Part shown: in pieces, positions 1 through 8,020 of the stretch
Numbering within the stretch: the first letter of the stretch is position 1
Layout of the letters: the number at the start of each line of letters is the position of its first letter
Sequence record: DRR723986_2456
Reading direction: 5' to 3' (one strand)
DNA: 64,000 bases
The notes under the pieces: model-generated
Database searches by the model: none
Seen by the model: the letters and a program-made list of their open reading frames with translations, nothing else
What the model was told of the DNA's origin: nothing
Position numbers and translations under genes: made by a program

Positions 1-40
1 AAGCATTGCAGCGGACAAGCCGCTGAATGCCGCGTTATGA
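1..40 (+). mobile_element. attC: integron attC site (left end cut by window edge)
   Basis: Stem GCATT-G-CAGCGG (3-14) / CCGCTG-AATGC (20-30) with one unpaired G, then core-site-like GTTATGA at 34-40 just before a gene. Confidence 0.8.
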
Positions 41-62
41 ATACATGGAGAGTAGAGTAGGT

Positions 63-413
63 ATGAACTTCAATCCAGACTCCTTTTTAGGAGCCGGTTA
101 TAAACGATTAGATTTGAAATTTATTTTCGACAACCTTAGGAATGTTGGTATTGCTTCCGCGATTTTTGTTGCTGGCAGCTTTCTGATGAAAAATGGAGCG
201 ACATTTATTGCGCCCAATTTCAACTCAGAGTTGTGGGGAACTGTTATTTGTATTCTTGCGCTGCTTCTTCTTGCGTGTAATTTTTTGCAATTTGTATACC
301 TTTCCGCAAGCCTTGGCACGAAAACATCCATAAGCTGCGCCGCTGCATTGGCAGCCCCCGTCTATGTTGTTATTTCTTTATTGTTCGCTACATATACGAT
401 AAATGGTTTATAA
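63..413 (+). CDS. integron cassette hypothetical membrane protein (about 3 TM segments)
   Basis: AT-rich ORF filling the space between two attC sites, with three hydrophobic stretches. Start is ATG 63 or 45; the track start at 27 lies inside attC. Confidence 0.7.
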   Translation: MNFNPDSFLGAGYKRLDLKFIFDNLRNVGIASAIFVAGSFLMKNGATFIAPNFNSELWGTVICILALLLLACNFLQFVYLSASLGTKTSISCAAALAAPVYVVISLLFATYTINGL

Positions 414-422
414 GCGTGATAT

Positions 423-514
423 GCACAACAAGACTGAGCAGCATCGTAAACACTGCGTGTTTACTGTGCCTCAGTTGCATTCGCACCTCCGGCCGCTGTC
501 AGTAAGCGTTAAGC
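423..514 (+). mobile_element. attC: integron attC site
   Basis: Inverse core GCACAAC 423-429; ACTGA-G-CAGC (433-442) pairs with GCTG-TCAGT (495-503) with an extrahelical G; inner hairpin GTAAACAC/GTGTTTAC; core GTTAAGC 508-514. Confidence 0.85.
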
Positions 515-535
515 ATAGAAATTAAGGATACAGAC

Positions 536-1009
536 TTGAATCCACTAGTCTTGGTATTAGGTGCATTAGGAGCATTTGTTGCTGCTGACAGGCTGGCCGG
601 TGCGTTATTCCGAAAAAAAAGAATATTTGTTAGTTATTACTATGAAAAAGACAGGGCTATAAAACGATTGCTCAATGCTTGGAGCAAAAATGATAAATTT
701 GATATTGAGTTCGAAGATATGTCGGCAGACGTTTCACTTGCAACCAAAACAGACGACGAGCTAAAACAGGAGCTTACAGCGCGAATTAACGAGTCAGATA
801 TTGTGCTTGTCTTGATTGGAAGTAAAACCCATTCTCGAAAGTGGATTGACTATGAAGTGGGAGAAGCTGTCCGTCTTGCCAAGCCAATCGTTGCTGTTAA
901 ACAGGATAGGGGCAATATTTCACCCAAGAAGCTTAAAGGGGTGGGTGCAAATTGGGTATACGGTTTTCGGGCCAAGAAAGTAAGTAAAGCTCTCAAAGAG
1001 TGCATTTGA
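536..1009 (+). CDS. TIR-domain protein, ThsB/DUF1863-like, with N-terminal hydrophobic segment
   Basis: RIFVSY beta-A motif, IVLVLIGSKT, WIDYEV with catalytic-type Glu, PIVAV; TTG start after AAGGA. Confidence 0.85.
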   Translation: MNPLVLVLGALGAFVAADRLAGALFRKKRIFVSYYYEKDRAIKRLLNAWSKNDKFDIEFEDMSADVSLATKTDDELKQELTARINESDIVLVLIGSKTHSRKWIDYEVGEAVRLAKPIVAVKQDRGNISPKKLKGVGANWVYGFRAKKVSKALKECI

Positions 1010-1037
1010 AAGTTAAGCACAAAGGCAGGGTTGGCGC

Positions 1038-1487
1038 ATGAATGACGATGATTATATAAGTTCGAGGGTCGACAACCAAATAGACTGGTATGACCGAAAG
1101 AGCCAAGGAGCCCAGAGGTGGTTCAAGCTACTTAGAGGGGCTGAAATAGTTGCCGCTGCTACCATTCCATTGATCGCAGGCTTCGCCACTGAACCGTTTC
1201 CGGTTACTTTAGTTCTTGGAATTTTAGGCGCATCTATTGCTGTAATTTCAGCGGCAATAAGCTTAAATCAATTTCAAGAGAATTGGACTGAATATAGAAC
1301 TACGTGTGAGTCCTTAAAGCACGAAAAATTTCTATACCTGACGAGGGCCGAACCTTATCACGAGGAAGAGCCATTTCGTCTTTTCGTTCAAAGGGTGGAA
1401 AGCCTAATTTCTAAAGAAAATAGTGCCTGGTCTCAATACACTCAAGCAAGCATTGAAAACACAAAACCTAACGGCGGAAAGACTTAA
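1038..1487 (+). CDS. SLATT-family (DUF4231) two-TM protein
   Basis: R-x3-QIDWYDRKS, two hydrophobic helices, then WTEYRTTCESLKHEKFLYL and FVQRVESLISKE, as typical of DUF4231. Confidence 0.85.
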   Translation: MNDDDYISSRVDNQIDWYDRKSQGAQRWFKLLRGAEIVAAATIPLIAGFATEPFPVTLVLGILGASIAVISAAISLNQFQENWTEYRTTCESLKHEKFLYLTRAEPYHEEEPFRLFVQRVESLISKENSAWSQYTQASIENTKPNGGKT

Positions 1488-1488
1488 A

Positions 1489-2016
1489 ATGGCTAGCGGG
1501 ATACTCTATGATCTTGGTGTGGTAAAGAGGAAGGTGTTCGTAAGTTACCACCATGGAAATGACCGTCCCTATTATGACGCATTCATAAACTCATTTTCAA
1601 ATACCTATGACGTGGTCCATGACAACTCTGTAGAGCGTGCAGTTAATAGTGACAACACAGATTATGTTATTCGAAAAATAAGAGAAAACTACATCACCGG
1701 GAGCTCCTGCACGATTGTTCTTTGTGGCCCACAAACACCTTGGAGAAAATTTGTTGATTGGGAAATAAAAGCCACGCTAGATAAACAACATGCTCTGATT
1801 GGTGTGAATTTGCCCACAAATCCACTGAATGCGGGCAATAAATATACTGTACCAGATAGACTGCATGACAATATTCAATCTGGATTCGCGGTATGGGTCG
1901 ATTGGACGACATTCACCCAAACTCATGAAGCAGTACGGCAATATATCGAGTTGGCGAAATCAAGCTCTACTCAGCTGATAGACAATAGCCGTCCTTTGCG
2001 ACAGCGGAATCGGTAA
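1489..2016 (+). CDS. TIR-domain protein, ThsB/DUF1863-like
   Basis: RKVFVSYHH, IRENYITGSSCTIVLCG, WRKFVDWEIKATL (catalytic-type Glu), PDRLHDN; ATG 1 nt after the SLATT stop. Confidence 0.9.
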   Translation: MASGILYDLGVVKRKVFVSYHHGNDRPYYDAFINSFSNTYDVVHDNSVERAVNSDNTDYVIRKIRENYITGSSCTIVLCGPQTPWRKFVDWEIKATLDKQHALIGVNLPTNPLNAGNKYTVPDRLHDNIQSGFAVWVDWTTFTQTHEAVRQYIELAKSSSTQLIDNSRPLRQRNR

Positions 2017-2018
2017 GC

Positions 2019-2079
2019 GCTTAACAAACGCCTCAATTAGGACACTCGCAAGCTCGCGCCTATTACGCGGGCGTTACGA
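2019..2079 (+). mobile_element. attC: integron attC site (last of array)
   Basis: Inverse core GCTTAAC 2019-2025 is the exact complement of GTTAAGC at 508; imperfect stem AATTAGG/CCTATT; core GTTACGA 2073-2079. Confidence 0.85.
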
Positions 2080-2216
2080 GTCTGATCATGCATATATTGA
2101 CCATCCGAAATCAATGGGGTCAGAGTCATTGACCCTGATGCTAGCCCCCATCCACCTATAACTACCCCGTCCCTTTAGCCCTCGGGTAATGTCTGCACGG
2201 CCGACGGCTCACTGAA

Positions 2217-2573
2217 TCAAAACGGAATGTCGTCATCCGTGTTGCTAAAGGATTGATCATATGGCGTGTTGTCTGCTGGGGGGTAGGGTTCGCTATCTGC
2301 GGCACTGGCGTCTGACTGGATTTTCCAGCCCACCAGATTATTGAAGTAGCGCCCGTTGTACTCACGCCCGCGAATGTCGAAGCTCACGGTGACGCTCTGC
2401 CCAACACTAAGGCTGTCCAGTAGGCTGATCTTTTCTTTTAGGAATTCCAGGCTGATATCCTGCGGGTAGTTGCCGTCTTCGACGGTGACCACCATTTCCC
2501 GCTTGCTAAAACCACTATTGAAGGTTTGTGTTTCCTGAATCAGCTTAATTTTGCCGGTGAGCTCGTATGACAT
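2217..2573 (-). CDS. DUF3127 family OB-fold protein
   Basis: MSYELTGKIK, FSKREMVV, YPQDISLEF, FDIRGREYNGRYFNNL; acidic tail DDDIPF. Confidence 0.85.
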   Translation of the reverse strand: MSYELTGKIKLIQETQTFNSGFSKREMVVTVEDGNYPQDISLEFLKEKISLLDSLSVGQSVTVSFDIRGREYNGRYFNNLVGWKIQSDASAADSEPYPPADNTPYDQSFSNTDDDIPF

Positions 2574-2712
2574 GCTTCTCTCTCGGGGGTTGCGTGTGTG
2601 CCACCAATTGGCCAAACGCATTGTACCAATGCCGGATTGAATCGCCAGACTTGGCGTCAATGGGCAAACGTGATTCATTGCCGCCCTCTGGCTACCCCTT
2701 CTGGCTCCTCCC

Positions 2713-3390
2713 TCAATCCAACCCCAACCATGTTTTAAGACTGTTGCCGATATCGATGATCTCCTCCATACAGACTTCATGCTGCATGGGGTAGCTGCGG
2801 TAGGTGGGTTTAAAGCCCATGCTTTGCAGGATTTGATCGGCGGTATGGCCCATCACTTCGGGCACCATTGGGTCTTGGCTGCCGTGGAAAATATGGATGG
2901 GCAGCGCCTTGTTTGCTTCCGAGAGCGTGACTTCCTTGGCGGTGGCAAAGTAGGTAGACATTGTCAGTAAACCCGCCAGCGGTTTGGGGTAGGAAAGCGC
3001 GGTGTGGTACACCACTGCCCCGCCCTGACTAAAGCCTGCCAATACGATGCGCTCGCTGGGAATACCGGCATCCAGCTCGCGCTGAATTAGCTCACGCACA
3101 GCCGCAGAGGAGGCTTCTATCTGCTCGGTATCAATCTCGCGCTCAAGCGACATGGCGAGTATGTCATACCAGGCGGGCATGACCATGCCGCCGTTGATTG
3201 TGACGGGAATCTCCGGCGCATGGGGGAAGATAAAGCGCACGCGGTGATTTTCCGGTAGACCAAGATGAGGCACCACCGGTACAAAGTCGTGGCCGCTGGC
3301 ACCCAGGCCGTGTAGCCAAATAACGGCGGCATCGGCCGTCGTTTGCGGTTCTATTACTTCACATTTGAGCAAGACATTACTCCCGAACAT
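2713..3390 (-). CDS. phospholipase/carboxylesterase (alpha/beta hydrolase)
   Basis: WLHGLGA, PAWYDI, GFSQG nucleophile, HGSQDPMV, MQHEV. Confidence 0.92.
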   Translation of the reverse strand: MFGSNVLLKCEVIEPQTTADAAVIWLHGLGASGHDFVPVVPHLGLPENHRVRFIFPHAPEIPVTINGGMVMPAWYDILAMSLEREIDTEQIEASSAAVRELIQRELDAGIPSERIVLAGFSQGGAVVYHTALSYPKPLAGLLTMSTYFATAKEVTLSEANKALPIHIFHGSQDPMVPEVMGHTADQILQSMGFKPTYRSYPMQHEVCMEEIIDIGNSLKTWLGLD

Positions 3391-3708
3391 TAAAATTTGC
3401 GGTTAGGGTATCACGGACAGACAGCACAGGTCGGGACTCGCATAGCCCACATTCCCGGATTCCCGGAGCACCTAGCCAATCGACACCTATACCTAAATAG
3501 ATACTTCTCAATTCTCAATGCAGGCAGGCAGCTATTGTCTATACAAGCTGAGAGGGACTACACAAGAAGCGACAGCAAACAGCAATTTGTGCCGGCCAAT
3601 TTGCGCGGCATTTATCAGTGTTCTAGCATGTTGCGCACTGTAACCTGCGCGCCTGACATGGCCCGGCAGCGCCTACTTAAGCGAGCCATGGTAAAAAGGA
3701 ACTCTCTC

Positions 3709-4497
3709 ATGCTACGCCACCAGAACGGAAGCCTGCTCCAGCTTGAGGATGCAGAGATTTACTATCAGGTATCGGGCTCGCCAACCGGCCACCCGCTTTT
3801 GCTGCTTCATGGTGGCCTGGGTAGCCTGGAAGACTTTTCAGCGATCGCGGGCAGCATACCTGAGCACTTCTTTGTCATTGCCGTGGACCTTCGCGGCCAC
3901 GGCCGCTCCACAATAGGGAGAAAGCCCCTTAGCTACTTACAACACCAACTGGATGTTCAGGCCCTTATCGCTCACCTAAATCTGGACGAGTATTCAATAT
4001 TGGGATTCAGCGACGGCGGTATTGTCGGCTATCGCTTGGCCATCGAGAATGCCGCCATCAGAGCCCTTGTCACGGTAGGTGCTCAATGGCGAATTTCAGA
4101 CCAAGATGCCTGCTATGAAATACTCAGCGGGGTAACACCTGAAACATGGACAGAGATATTCCCCGACGCGCCTCGGAAATATTCTGAACTGAATCCACAC
4201 GGCAACTTTGCCGAGTTGGTTCAGAGCTGCACCAGGCTCTGGACGGACCTCGGCCCCTCTGGCTATCCGGGAGATGCCATTGCCCGCATTCAGTGCCCCA
4301 CCCTGATCCTTCGGGGTGATAGTGACTTCCTACTTTCTTTGGAAGAGGCAGCAGACGCACAAACCATGATCAATGGGGCATCACTTGGGAACATCCCCTT
4401 CTGCAGCCACGCGGCCATCGAAGAGTCTCCCGATATTGCAGCGCGCTTGATCTGTGATTTTCTGAACGAGCCCAGAAAACGCCATACCGATACCTAG
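3709..4497 (+). CDS. alpha/beta fold hydrolase
   Basis: LLHGGLG, DLRGHGRS, GFSDGG, GDSD, C-terminal His; start moved to the ATG after AAGGA. Confidence 0.88.
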   Translation: MLRHQNGSLLQLEDAEIYYQVSGSPTGHPLLLLHGGLGSLEDFSAIAGSIPEHFFVIAVDLRGHGRSTIGRKPLSYLQHQLDVQALIAHLNLDEYSILGFSDGGIVGYRLAIENAAIRALVTVGAQWRISDQDACYEILSGVTPETWTEIFPDAPRKYSELNPHGNFAELVQSCTRLWTDLGPSGYPGDAIARIQCPTLILRGDSDFLLSLEEAADAQTMINGASLGNIPFCSHAAIEESPDIAARLICDFLNEPRKRHTDT

Positions 4498-4525
4498 AAC
4501 AGCCGTACTCGTTTCTTTATGGGCC

Positions 4526-5008
4526 TTATGGACGGGCCGAAGGAGAGCAATAGTCAGCAAACAGCTTTTGCATTTTCTCCAAACGAATATAGCCTTGCAG
4601 TGTTCCCAGCAGTTGTCCCTGTGGGCCGAATATCAGCGTCCACGGTGTGGCGGGCACGTCGCCCACAACGTTCATCAACCTGGGCGTTGCACTCAGAGCA
4701 GGGTACTGAACCTTAGCGCGGCGCACCTCCTTGCGAAGACGCAACACATCGCCATTTACGCCGACAGACAAAGGCTGAAGGTGATCGCCGCACTGCGCCT
4801 GAAGACGATTAAGCACTTTCATTTGCCGATAACACCACGGGCAATCTGGCTCAAAGAAGCTCATCAACACCACTTTGCCACGGTACTCGCTCAATACATG
4901 CTCGCCGTCACCACGCAGGCTCGGCAGCGCGAGGTCTTGCAATGCAGCCTGAGCCAGGGAGTTCGCCCCCAGGCCCAGCAACAGCAGAATGCGAAGGGCA
5001 GCGCGCAT
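4526..5008 (-). CDS. exported TlpA/ResA-like thioredoxin-fold protein
   Basis: Signal peptide, LSEYRGKVVL, CPWC, cis-Pro motif ATP; overlaps the receptor stop codon. Confidence 0.85.
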   Translation of the reverse strand: MRAALRILLLLGLGANSLAQAALQDLALPSLRGDGEHVLSEYRGKVVLMSFFEPDCPWCYRQMKVLNRLQAQCGDHLQPLSVGVNGDVLRLRKEVRRAKVQYPALSATPRLMNVVGDVPATPWTLIFGPQGQLLGTLQGYIRLEKMQKLFADYCSPSARP

Positions 5009-7104
5009 CAGAAGGTGTACTTCACACCGGCGTAGGCTTCGCGACCACGCAGCGGCCCGTAAATATGCGCGACATCGTATTCCCCGCCCTCATAGAACAG
5101 CGGCGTTTCCATGTCTTCCGCTTGCGTGTATCCAAACAAGTTACTCACCCCGGCATAAACCTGCCACTGCTCGCTGAGTACCTTGGCGACCCGCATATCT
5201 ACCGTCCAATATGATTCGGCATCTTGCGACTTCGCTTCTGTACCTGCGGCATCAAAGCTTGGGCTTTCCGGCACGCCATACTCACTAAGGTCGCGACTGC
5301 CTACCCACGTCGCCGAGGCATAAAGATCCCAGCCCGCAAACTCCCAATCTGCGCTCAGCACAATGCGCTGCTCAACAGGCACCACACCATAGGAGGATTT
5401 GAATTCGTCTGAGTAATCGATGTTCTCTGCTGTCGCCATCAACGCCAGGTCATCGCGTACGTTCCAGGTAAACGCAACATCAGCGACCAGAACACTGGCA
5501 TCGTTTTCGGACTGAGTAAGCACGGGCACACCCGCATTGTTCTCATCGAGCGCCGCCAGATTTTCCACATTGGTGTGAGACAGTGAGCCCGTAACGGCAA
5601 GGGCCTCGGCCTCGTAGCTCAGGGCATAGTTGTATGAACTGGAGCGCTCAAGTTCGTCAATTTGGATATCAAACCCGACGCTGGCATCCAGAATGCCGTG
5701 GTCGCTTTCGAAGAACGACAGCGGCGCTCGATAGCCCCGACCAAAGGAAAAACGCGACGTCCATTGGTCGTTGTGGCTGTAGCGCATATCGATACGCGGG
5801 GAGGTAATACTCTCGTCGATCTCGGTACCCGGCTTTGAGGCATCCACAAAGTTCGCTTCAACCTGGTCAAAACGCAGCGCCATCGCTATTTCAAGGTTTT
5901 CTGTGGCCGACCAGGTGTCTTGCACGTAGAAGCCTTGCGTATCGTAGTCAAAACTGTCTGATACGTAGGCTGGGCTGGTGCTATTGGTCTGTGATCGAAG
6001 CTCTTCCGCCCGATTGTCGGCCCCCACAGTAAGTAAGTGGTCGTCGCTCACTGCCCAGTGAAACCGCGCATCCAGGTAGGTCATCTCGTCGTCGGCTTCA
6101 TAGATAAAGCCTTCATAGAACGAGTCCTGCGTGTGCTCGTTGTGCGCAACCGAAAGCTGCATATTCAAATCGCTGCTAAACTCGTGGAGCCAGCTCAGGT
6201 AGACCTCGTCCCGGTCAGACTGAATCCACTCGGTGGTCTCCCAGCCTCGGCCAATATAGTCCTTGCGCACATCGTCATCGACAAACAAACTGGCTGAGGC
6301 GAAATTTGGATCGCGATGGTAGTCGGCTTTTACCTGCCCAATGCTCGTACCTGTTGGGCCGCCAAAAATTTCGGATTCGGTGTGATTCACGCGCAGGCGA
6401 ACATTGTCACGCGTACCCAAATCCTGGGAGAGGTACATGGTCAACGAGGTGTTCTCCAGCTCGGGGTTCTCGCTTACACCATTGTCATCACCGTCATATT
6501 GATCGCGCGTGTCGTACTGCCCGATAAGCGTGAGTCGGGTGGTGTCTTCGTTCGCCAGCGCCGTCGCCACAACACTACCTTTTCTATACCCAAGCTCACC
6601 GGCAGACAAGTCCAGCTCAACGCCGTTCTCCCTCGCCTCTTTGGTGACCAGGTTTATCGTACCGCCAATGGCCTCAGGCGCTATTAATGAGGCCCCTGCG
6701 CCGCGAGCAATTTCGATATTCCCAATACCGGCGGATGCAGCGGCATCCAATCCGTAGAATCCCGACATCATCGTATAGGTGGGAATGCCATCCACCAGAA
6801 TGGTTGTATGCTCTCCGCGCAACCCGTTCAGCATGACCCGCTTAACACCGCACATAGAGCATTCATTATTAACACGAACGCCCGGCGCCTCCGCGATGGC
6901 CTCCGTAAGGCTTGCCGCATTCATTTTTTCTATGGATATGTTCGAGATGACTTCCGTCTTCTGAATAACGTCCTTCAACATACCCGCCTGATACAGGCGC
7001 TCGCGCAACCCCGTAACCGTCACCTCTTCCAACACGGTGTTGTCTGCCAAGCTAGGCGCCGCTAACAGCGCGCCAATTGCCGCCCCTAAAAATACGTTTT
7101 TCAT
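5008..7104 (-). CDS. TonB-dependent outer membrane receptor
   Basis: Signal peptide, TonB box EEVTVTG, plug motif IEIARGAGAS...AIGGTINLVTK, C-terminal GVKYTF. Confidence 0.93.
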   Translation of the reverse strand: MKNVFLGAAIGALLAAPSLADNTVLEEVTVTGLRERLYQAGMLKDVIQKTEVISNISIEKMNAASLTEAIAEAPGVRVNNECSMCGVKRVMLNGLRGEHTTILVDGIPTYTMMSGFYGLDAAASAGIGNIEIARGAGASLIAPEAIGGTINLVTKEARENGVELDLSAGELGYRKGSVVATALANEDTTRLTLIGQYDTRDQYDGDDNGVSENPELENTSLTMYLSQDLGTRDNVRLRVNHTESEIFGGPTGTSIGQVKADYHRDPNFASASLFVDDDVRKDYIGRGWETTEWIQSDRDEVYLSWLHEFSSDLNMQLSVAHNEHTQDSFYEGFIYEADDEMTYLDARFHWAVSDDHLLTVGADNRAEELRSQTNSTSPAYVSDSFDYDTQGFYVQDTWSATENLEIAMALRFDQVEANFVDASKPGTEIDESITSPRIDMRYSHNDQWTSRFSFGRGYRAPLSFFESDHGILDASVGFDIQIDELERSSSYNYALSYEAEALAVTGSLSHTNVENLAALDENNAGVPVLTQSENDASVLVADVAFTWNVRDDLALMATAENIDYSDEFKSSYGVVPVEQRIVLSADWEFAGWDLYASATWVGSRDLSEYGVPESPSFDAAGTEAKSQDAESYWTVDMRVAKVLSEQWQVYAGVSNLFGYTQAEDMETPLFYEGGEYDVAHIYGPLRGREAYAGVKYTF

Positions 7105-7159
7105 AGCGTTCCCTTTCAATATCGGCGATGGCCCAGAACACCATCACGCCGCGAATAAC

Positions 7160-7184
7160 GCTAATGATAATGATTTTTATTTGC
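7160..7184. promoter_or_regulatory. Fur box (two overlapping matches)
   Basis: GCTAATGATAATGATTTTT (7160-7178) matches GATAATGATAATCATTATC at 15/19 and GATAATGATTTTTATTTGC (7166-7184) at 14/19; upstream of the TonB receptor. Confidence 0.75.
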
Positions 7185-7244
7185 GAAATAAGATAAAGCG
7201 TCAATTTCTTGATCCAGATCAAGAATTGGCGCATTCCATGCGAC

Positions 7245-7550
7245 TTATTGTCCGATCAGAATCAGCTTTCCGGTCTCCGGGTCACGATATACAGTGCCCA
7301 GTGACTCGTAGCCGCTGCCGTCTTGCAGCTGTGATTGCACACTGTCCGGCGCCTGCGGCAGTTCTTCACCCAGCGATAAATCCCGCTGCTGGCGTGTGCT
7401 GTCAAAGTGCTGCTGTAGCTCGGGGCTATAGGCCACCAGCGCGGCGATCAGGCCGCAGGCAAATACCAGAATTATGTCCACCAGGTTCGCCATGGGCCCC
7501 AGTGGGTCGTCGTCGTGCTCAAAGAAGTGACTGCGCCGCCAATCATCCAT
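7245..7550 (-). CDS. DUF2149 family protein (ExbD-like, HmuV-like)
   Basis: DDDPLGPMANLVDIILVFACGL single TM with Asp; GTVYRDPETGKLILI. Confidence 0.85.
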   Translation of the reverse strand: MDDWRRSHFFEHDDDPLGPMANLVDIILVFACGLIAALVAYSPELQQHFDSTRQQRDLSLGEELPQAPDSVQSQLQDGSGYESLGTVYRDPETGKLILIGQ

Positions 7551-7554
7551 TGTG

Positions 7555-7998
7555 CTATTCCCCTGCGTCTGTCGACGGCGTTAGTGCCAGCAGCGCTCGG
7601 TCGTACCAGCGGCGGCGCAAGCGGCCAAGTACAAATCCGATCATGCCCGCCAACAAACCAATGACCGTCGTATCAAAAGCCGTGATCATCGCCGTGGTAA
7701 GCACCTGCAAGTCGCCCTCACCCAACGCGGCCAGCCCTGGCCCCAATGGAATCAGTGTGCCCATGAGGCCGAGCATGGGCGAGAGTCGCGTGACAAAATC
7801 TGCTCGCTCGATGCGCCGCCGCCCCGTTTCCAGTAGCGCGGCGCGGCTCATGCGGGCAATGCCGCCAAAGCGCTCACCCAGCGCCAGGCCACACTCAAAC
7901 ACGGCCACTGCCAACATAAGCAACAGTGCCCACACCACAGGCTCTAACAGCAGGCCAGATAACGTATGTAAAACATCCAGCGATAAACTCGAAAACAT
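7555..7998 (-). CDS. MotA/TolQ/ExbB proton channel family protein (HmuU-like)
   Basis: PMLGLMGTLIPL and AFDTTVIGL helices. Confidence 0.88.
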   Translation of the reverse strand: MFSSLSLDVLHTLSGLLLEPVVWALLLMLAVAVFECGLALGERFGGIARMSRAALLETGRRRIERADFVTRLSPMLGLMGTLIPLGPGLAALGEGDLQVLTTAMITAFDTTVIGLLAGMIGFVLGRLRRRWYDRALLALTPSTDAGE

Positions 7999-8020
7999 AG
8001 CGACTTTCCTTTTCTAACGA

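Follow-up and report, generated by a model that had tools for sequence, protein, structure and literature searches.

The stretch of DNA described here (the window; 64,000 nucleotides of sequence record DRR723986_2456) contains, at positions 509–2073, an integron gene cassette in which two genes for ThsB-type TIR proteins, TIR1 and TIR2, flank a gene for a small membrane protein of the SLATT (DUF4231) family. This cassette probably encodes a two-sensor anti-phage system of type VII Thoeris, because its domains, its gene order, and its catalytic residue fit the published description of that type. Read in this way, it represents a complete defense system of the signaling type that moves between very different bacteria in the form of an integron cassette and that preserves the apparent seam of a cassette fusion, by which a second, membrane-tethered sensor would have been added.

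Type VII Thoeris was introduced by Yirmiya et al. (bioRxiv 10.64898/2025.12.03.692087, December 2025), who scanned defense islands for TIR systems. In the available text of that preprint, the name is given to systems in which a TIR gene lies beside a gene for a SLATT protein, the effector ThsH. Three such systems, two from marine Gammaproteobacteria (Pseudohongiella nitratireducens SCS-111 and an Alteromonadales metagenome scaffold) and one from Bacillus licheniformis SCCB 37, are reported there to be defensive, and their TIR proteins are reported to make canonical cyclic ADP-ribose (cADPR) only upon infection. Supplied cADPR, and not 2′- or 3′cADPR, halted growth with two of the three systems, those from the Alteromonadales scaffold and B. 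licheniformis. In the AlphaFold 3 (AF3) models of the same study, ThsH is a homo-hexamer in which neighboring SLATT protomers enclose positively charged pockets, and these pockets are proposed to bind cADPR.

Organization and Limits of the Cassette

The features that define the cassette, all on the + strand, are as follows.

509–2073, +: three-gene cassette of 1565 bp; the same ends recur within unrelated flanks
536–1009, +: TIR1, a ThsB-type TIR protein of 157 residues with a TTG start (Pfam, PADLOC)
1012–1018, +: internal GTTAAGC core, a remnant recombination site and the 5′ limit of the SLATT-TIR2 cassette, 3 bases past the TIR1 stop
1038–1487, +: SLATT_1/DUF4231 protein of 149 residues (Pfam, NCBIfam), the predicted ThsH-type effector
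1489–2016, +: TIR2, a ThsB-type TIR protein of 175 residues (Pfam, PADLOC, PDB), starting 1 nt past the SLATT stop
421–514, +: attC of the upstream cassette, with R″ GCACAAC at 423–429 and R′ GTTAAGC at 508–514; crossover 508/509 sets the 5′ end of the three-gene cassette
2019–2079, +: the cassette's own attC, 61 bp, with R″ GCTTAAC (the inverse core) at 2019–2025 and R′ GTTACGA (the downstream core) at 2073–2079; crossover after G2073

The intervals between the genes are 28 nt (TIR1-SLATT) and 1 nt (SLATT-TIR2). In both attC sites the crossover falls between the G and the TT of the core, at 508/509 for the 5′ end and 2073/2074 for the 3′ end. The sites were called from comparative breakpoints and by hand reading; the breakpoints were relied on because folding energy is weak evidence by itself, the integrated attC and the attC sites of relatives mostly folding no better than shuffled sequences.

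The breakpoints coincide with the cores. One metagenome contig (locus L039) is 90.9% identical to window positions 508–2075 over 1570 columns, and its flanks on either side are unrelated; the match starts at GTTAAGC and stops just past the GTT of the downstream core. A 50-kb contig from sequencing run X2, which is labeled as a single organism or isolate, matches 506–2076 with 66 differences (~96%), and its flanks are likewise unlike those in the window. Because the homology of both contigs starts and stops at the cores, positions 509–2073 are an attC-bounded gene cassette, mobile as one unit. Its attC is kept along with the cassette in four loci (L027, L039, L042, and L013), where the likeness ends right after the GTT. 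The single excisable unit proposed in the initial annotation therefore has the ends assigned to it, shared to within 1–3 bases by L039 and the run X2 contig, but it is composite: the third GTTAAGC, at 1012–1018, had been missed.

The R″ of the cassette's attC fits the consensus RYYYAAC at all seven positions. Its R′ fits GTTRRRY at 5 of 7 positions in the integrated form (GTTACGA) and at 7 of 7 in the excised circle, in which the first bases of the cassette supply GTTAAGC; a 7–8-bp R″/R′ stem then closes both strands. When the integrated site was folded, the top strand behaved like shuffled sequences (17/200), and the bottom strand had a z-score of −2.1. The bottom strand of the upstream attC (421–514) forms one long imperfect hairpin that joins both ends (−20.4 kcal/mol, z −2.1, equaled by 6 of 200 shuffles). 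The motif GTTAAGC is no proof of a site on its own, being found 8 times in the window against an expectation of 8.0. The two attC sites share one orientation with a third, probable and partial, at positions 1–40.

The TIR Proteins

Both TIR proteins belong to the ThsB family. Each matches PF08937, ThsB_TIR (2.1e-19 for TIR1 and 9.2e-23 for TIR2), and the ThsB models of PADLOC. The AlphaFold2 (AF2) model of TIR1 consists of a helix and a TIR fold, with a mean predicted local distance difference test score (pLDDT) of 74.9 that falls below 50 in the N-terminal anchor described below, and its best matches in the PDB are the ThsB crystal structures 8wcf, 8fz9, and 8v6t; the PDB matches of TIR2 are 8wcf, 6lhy, and 9b7d. 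In alignments, Glu107 of TIR1 (in WIDYE) and Glu92 of TIR2 (in FVDWE) fall on the WVRYE Glu of ThsB structures 6LHY and 9B7D, which we take to be the catalytic Glu of ThsB. Glu107 is invariant in all 14 TIR1-family sequences, and Glu92 is invariant in 18 of 18 TIR2 homologues. The TTG start of the TIR1 gene recurs in three other loci (L039, L015, and L042). TIR2 is read from the ATG at 1489 in preference to the listed open reading frame with a GTG at 1423 because its homologues begin there.

In some CBASS (cyclic oligonucleotide-based antiphage signaling system), Pycsar, and prokaryotic Argonaute (pAgo) systems the TIR protein depletes NAD+ and is itself the effector. It is extremely unlikely that the same holds here, with the SLATT protein being accessory or independent. 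Bacterial TIRs can be NADase effectors, as the available text of Yirmiya et al. notes, but Pfam, PADLOC, and comparison with solved structures all place both of the present proteins in the ThsB family, and the cassette has no CD-NTase (cGAS/DncV-like nucleotidyltransferase), pAgo, or cyclase gene. In the type VII systems as published, moreover, supplied cADPR alone triggers toxicity.

The two TIR proteins differ at their N termini. TIR1 begins with a hydrophobic segment (approximately residues 3–25) followed by RKKR, and such a segment is present in 14 of 14 aligned members of its family, whereas no hydrophobic segment was found in TIR2. The anchored TIR1 may sense an envelope-proximal cue of infection or may deliver its signal locally. 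A literature search for membrane-anchored ThsB returned nothing relevant. With 27 clusters, the TIR1 family is small. In each of 10 loci, 3 genomic and 7 metagenomic (L014, L015, L022, and L039–L045), the TIR1-family gene lies beside a SLATT gene; in L043 this is a SLATT_1 fragment upstream of the TIR1-family gene. In L045 (2438–4415), a TIR1-like gene is convergent to genes for a 330-residue tandem SLATT_3 + SLATT_1 protein and another ThsB-type TIR protein.

Such properties could also be those of a regulator or adaptor. TIR1 would then be tethered to the membrane in order to inhibit the SLATT protein, to recruit it by contact, or to degrade the signal, and TIR2 alone would make the signal. 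The conserved anchor places TIR1 at the membrane of the SLATT protein, its small family is linked to SLATT at all 10 loci, and the two-gene form without TIR1 is self-sufficient as a cassette in many genomes, all of which would suit this arrangement. Thoeris systems commonly have more than one ThsB gene, which counts against it, as does the invariance of Glu107 and the surrounding ThsB motif in all 14 sequences, a pattern to be expected if the enzyme is active. The closest structural matches of TIR1 are also catalytic ThsB proteins, and type III Thoeris is described with multiple TIR proteins (Yirmiya et al., Introduction, in the available text). We consider a purely regulatory TIR1 unlikely and retain the reading in which both TIR proteins are candidate signal-producing enzymes.

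The SLATT Protein

The protein encoded between the two TIR genes matches DUF4231 (1.4e-24) and SLATT_1 (4.8e-15) in Pfam and NF033634 (8.9e-40) in NCBIfam. Its AF2 model has a pLDDT of 94.1 and comprises four helices, at residues 3–48, 53–77, 79–101, and 112–142. In this model, the end of helix 1 and helix 2 form a transmembrane hairpin, and the N- and C-terminal helices are cytoplasmic; hydrophobic windows span approximately residues 45–78. Arg10, Arg87, and Trp131 are the same in 122 of 122 diverse homologues, and several aromatic residues come close to this. All of these lie in the predicted cytoplasmic helices, a distribution that suits a nucleotide pocket.

Among the 120 homologues listed of 632, SLATT identity is 65–95%, which is unusually high for a mobile gene; the source names of the listed homologues include Chlorobiaceae, Thiothrix, Nitrosomonas, Desulforhopalus, and Vibrio. 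All three genes of the cassette are under purifying selection in the comparison of the window with L039, the ratios of nonsynonymous to synonymous substitution rates (dN/dS) being 0.18 for TIR1, 0.06 for SLATT, and 0.13 for TIR2. The PDB holds no sequence relative of the SLATT protein (best E of 0.17), and its model matched no PDB fold at E ≤ 0.001, retrieving only generic helical bundles. Of the longer SLATT-containing representatives scanned, 10 of 10 have extensions in which Pfam gives no significant domain, TIR included; there is no Rosetta-stone support for the pairing.

No SIR2, SLOG, or Macro/TM-Macro domain was found in the three cassette proteins or in the open reading frame of the upstream cassette. 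Much of the initial annotation is borne out by these data: open reading frames together with Pfam, PADLOC, and NCBIfam give three tightly packed genes in which two ThsB-type TIR proteins flank a SLATT protein; the catalytic-type Glu is kept in both; and scans with the same three resources agree with its statement that the cassette lacks a ThsA-type domain.

Linkage of TIR and SLATT Genes in Other Genomes

In a genome scan, SLATT homologues turned up at 27 loci. In 26 of these the homologue is full length, and these loci were compared together with flanks of up to ~4 kb per side; TIR genes were called with Pfam and a local TIR profile. At least one TIR or TIR-like gene adjoins the SLATT gene in 13 of the 26 loci, and in 6 of these 13 there are two or three. 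Together with the pairing at all 10 TIR1-family loci, this shows that the genes are linked across taxa. The linkage extends to phages. In temperate Staphylococcus phages, a SLATT gene (43% identical) is followed by an overlapping TIR gene in the lysogeny module; in the region read, that of Staphylococcus phage X2 (L046, 2498–3336), the repressor and integrase genes flank the DUF4231/SLATT gene and its overlapping TIR partner. A SLATT homologue is present in 34 phage records, mostly from Staphylococcus and Streptococcus phages.

The surroundings of the SLATT gene vary. In L039 (647–5131), the neighbors are a HEPN protein and two TIR_2 proteins (145 and 140 residues) just upstream and an HNH plus ABC-3C CTD11 protein downstream, so that four TIR genes surround one SLATT gene. 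In three related loci of gammaproteobacterial metagenome-assembled genomes (MAGs; L018, L020, and L021, SLATT at 4001–4450), a 76–79% identical SLATT gene is an orphan, with no TIR gene near it, and occurs in a common context, as judged by eye, beside a glutathione-S-transferase-like gene.

Proposed Mechanism

For the signal, the oligomerization, the defense, and the role of the anchor, we infer the following scheme from homology with type VII Thoeris as published. When a phage infects, NAD+ would be converted to a cyclic ADP-ribose signal by one or both TIR proteins through the catalytic Glu, TIR1 being anchored on the inner side of the membrane and TIR2 being soluble. The signal is expected to be canonical cADPR, as in the tested type VII systems, and would bind to the cytoplasmic helices of the two-transmembrane (2-TM) SLATT protein of the ThsH type. 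The SLATT protein would then oligomerize and breach the membrane, and the infection would be aborted. The two TIR proteins most likely broaden the range of phages that is sensed.

A relay from TIR signal to SLATT effector had been suggested in the initial annotation, and homology to type VII Thoeris makes it the best reading. The annotation had also argued that an effector with no recognizable ligand-binding domain must depend on a new binding site or on direct contact between proteins. This is unneeded, given the cADPR pockets proposed between protomers in the available text of the type VII preprint and the complete conservation of Arg10, Arg87, and Trp131.

Several observations weigh against this interpretation. 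The comparison with the ThsH and ThsB proteins of the published systems covers domains, gene order, and the catalytic residue. PADLOC, which the initial annotation had proposed to run, returned ThsB models for both TIR proteins, but no PADLOC 2023 model matches the SLATT protein. The SLATT family is not always linked to TIR: 13 of the 26 loci have no TIR in their flanks, although three of these are on truncated or insertion sequence (IS)-broken contigs. There is no integron integrase within the 64-kb window, the array running past the window start. No sigma-70-like promoter was found upstream of TIR1, and positions 1–2300 have 2 promoter-like sites where shuffled sequences average 4.1; as the last cassette of its array, the unit may be poorly expressed. 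The sequencing runs yielded no transcript evidence, and the two that are labeled as RNA gave only short contig pieces (1650–1902, and 2022–2076 together with 2135–2282), which are uninformative on expression either way.

Some of the same observations bear on the possibility that the cassette acts mainly as an addiction or stabilization module of the array, in which a toxic SLATT protein is held in check by the TIR proteins, rather than in phage defense. The SLATT protein is a predicted membrane toxin, the unit is located at the array end, and multi-gene toxin-antitoxin cassettes do occur in chromosomal integrons. An obligatory TIR antitoxin is hard to fit to the 13 of 26 loci in which SLATT occurs without TIR, the neighbors in L039 are of the defense type (HEPN, two TIR_2, and HNH/ABC-3C CTD11), and those TIR + SLATT systems that were put to the test are reported as anti-phage and as triggered by cADPR (Yirmiya et al., available text). 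An addiction module is thus very unlikely, and a two-sensor type VII Thoeris system remains the interpretation used below.

Comparison with Known Systems

The architecture of TIR plus SLATT is already known as type VII Thoeris, and the cassette does not represent a new class of system. The initial annotation had held that the novelty of the architecture needed checking and would be lost if a named system matched it exactly, and such a match exists for the architecture. As in type VII Thoeris, a ThsB-type TIR gene adjoins the gene of a small SLATT membrane protein in one operon that lacks a SIR2, SLOG, or Macro effector. Unlike the two-gene operons in the available text of the preprint, the cassette has a second flanking TIR, a membrane-anchored ThsB, and integron carriage; that text, supplementary tables aside, makes no mention of integrons or of a two-TIR arrangement. 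Likewise, the main text of a preprint on defense in chromosomal integrons makes no mention of TIR, SLATT, Thoeris, DUF4231, or ThsB; the supplements of these papers may well list such loci. What is modestly new here is that the system is carried as a cassette, that two cassettes appear to have been fused, and that membrane-anchored ThsB paralogues beside SLATT genes form a small family.

Type I Thoeris (ThsA, SIR2-SLOG, with ThsB) has ThsB-family TIR proteins with a Glu at the same catalytic position and reportedly often has several thsB genes per locus. It differs from the present system in that the cassette is without ThsA and in that the expected signal is cADPR rather than 3′cADPR. CBASS systems with SLATT (2-TM) effectors share the effector fold and, according to the available text of Yirmiya et al., a presumed nucleotide-triggered oligomerization that breaches the membrane. 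The cassette has no CD-NTase/SMODS gene, and the predicted maker of the signal is a TIR protein instead. A precedent for integron carriage is brc22/brc23 ("Tragantia"; bioRxiv 10.1101/2024.07.02.601719), described in the available text as two-gene integron cassettes that combine a ThsB homologue with a non-ThsA gene and confer phage resistance. The partner protein there has ~300 residues and a different predicted fold that is not SLATT, and the cassettes are in mobile integrons, in contrast to the three genes and chromosomal array found here. The DUF4231-TIR pair of temperate Staphylococcus phages (such as X2 and 187) has the same order of a SLATT gene and then a TIR gene, but it is carried in a lysogeny module and not in a cassette and has one TIR protein and no membrane-anchored one.

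Composite Structure and Probable Origin of the Cassette

The GTTAAGC at 1012–1018 divides the cassette into two parts. The homology of L027 (a Cycloclasticus MAG, 79.7%), L013 (a Chlorobiaceae MAG), and L017 (a Nitrosomonas MAG) starts exactly at 1012, and in L027 and L013 it ends at 2076 and 2075, respectively. In five loci (L012, L013, L017, L019, and L027), GTTAAGC lies ~20–25 nt before the SLATT ATG, with unrelated and often attC-like DNA upstream. Because the homology of these relatives begins at the internal core and is preceded by unrelated DNA, SLATT-TIR2 (1013–2073) is a cassette in its own right, as judged from these alignments, and a widespread one.

TIR1 directly precedes SLATT-TIR2, with no attC between them, in the window, in L039, and in the run X2 contig. 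Inspection by eye of the TIR1 3′ end and the TIR1-SLATT interval (~932–1018) revealed no convincing attC-like palindrome. The order TIR1-SLATT-TIR2 is also present in five other loci (L015, L022, L041, L042, and L044), and L014 has TIR1 and SLATT together with different TIR genes. The family sizes (27 clusters for TIR1 versus 632 for SLATT and 1386 for TIR2) point to TIR1 as the later addition. The simplest account, and the most likely, is that a TIR1 cassette was fused to a SLATT-TIR2 cassette with loss of the intervening attC. The reverse order of events, in which the two-gene form was derived from the three-gene form by recombination at the internal core, is the alternative to this account. 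In L015 (Thiohalomonadaceae), the TIR1-SLATT spacer (3966–4000) contains, in place of GTTAAGC, a short perfect palindrome, GCGTTG AGTC CAACGC, which may be another remnant of a lost attC.

A broader proposition would combine the two lines of evidence: TIR1 would be a distinct, SLATT-dedicated class of ThsB at the membrane, and the three-gene system would have been built by the integron through fusion of the TIR1 and SLATT-TIR2 cassettes. We put this forward tentatively and regard it as rather doubtful. If true, the cassette would be a visible example of integrons assembling multi-gene defense operons from single cassettes. As a natural construct of 1.6 kb, it is also compact enough to address what a second ThsB adds and whether the tethering of a TIR protein matters.

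The Cassette Array and Its Chromosomal Flank

Positions 1–2106 of the window are the end of a cassette array, of which the Thoeris cassette is the last unit, and ordinary chromosome follows from 2107 on. The features outside the Thoeris cassette are as follows.

1–40, +: probable 3′ end of the attC of the preceding cassette, cut by the window start; a hairpin with R′-like GTTATGA at 34–40
63–413, +: gene of the upstream cassette (cassette 35–508); its open reading frame is listed as 27–413, and the ATG at 63 is clear of the attC
2107–3386, no strand assigned: conserved chromosomal flank past the last cassette (match to genome G001)
2217–2573, −: DUF3127 gene (Pfam), directly adjoining the array end and conserved in G001
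2713–3390, −: carboxylesterase gene (Pfam)

The bottom strand of the hairpin at 1–40 folds with −11.1 kcal/mol (z −3.7; none of 200 shuffles as good), and its GTTATGA fits GTTRRRY at just 5 of 7 positions; these letters are probably the attC end of the preceding cassette. The product of the upstream cassette, which is outside the Thoeris unit, is a small protein; it has two hydrophobic stretches and matched no Pfam, PADLOC, or NCBIfam family. No Rfam match was found in positions 1–8000.

An integron integrase gene (intI) scores above the curated cut-off in 4 of 5 host genomes of relatives. It was judged to be non-adjacent in G002, where it is ~490 kb away if contig C3 is the contig of L027, and in G006, where its coordinate exceeds the length of the L022 contig.

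The nearest of the genomes compared, G001, matches the window from 2107 only, with 89–98% identity, and positions 1–2106 are absent from it; at the same junction it has other attC-like DNA and an insertion sequence. From this comparison, the junction looks like a variable cassette hotspot common to relatives. The corresponding locus of G001 (L003, contig C2, ~1384–5100) has no integrase nearby, the intI of this genome being on another contig, at the contig end. The locus consists of different cassette-like DNA that ends in an attC-like ...GTTAAGT, and an IS3-like element lies inside one of its genes.

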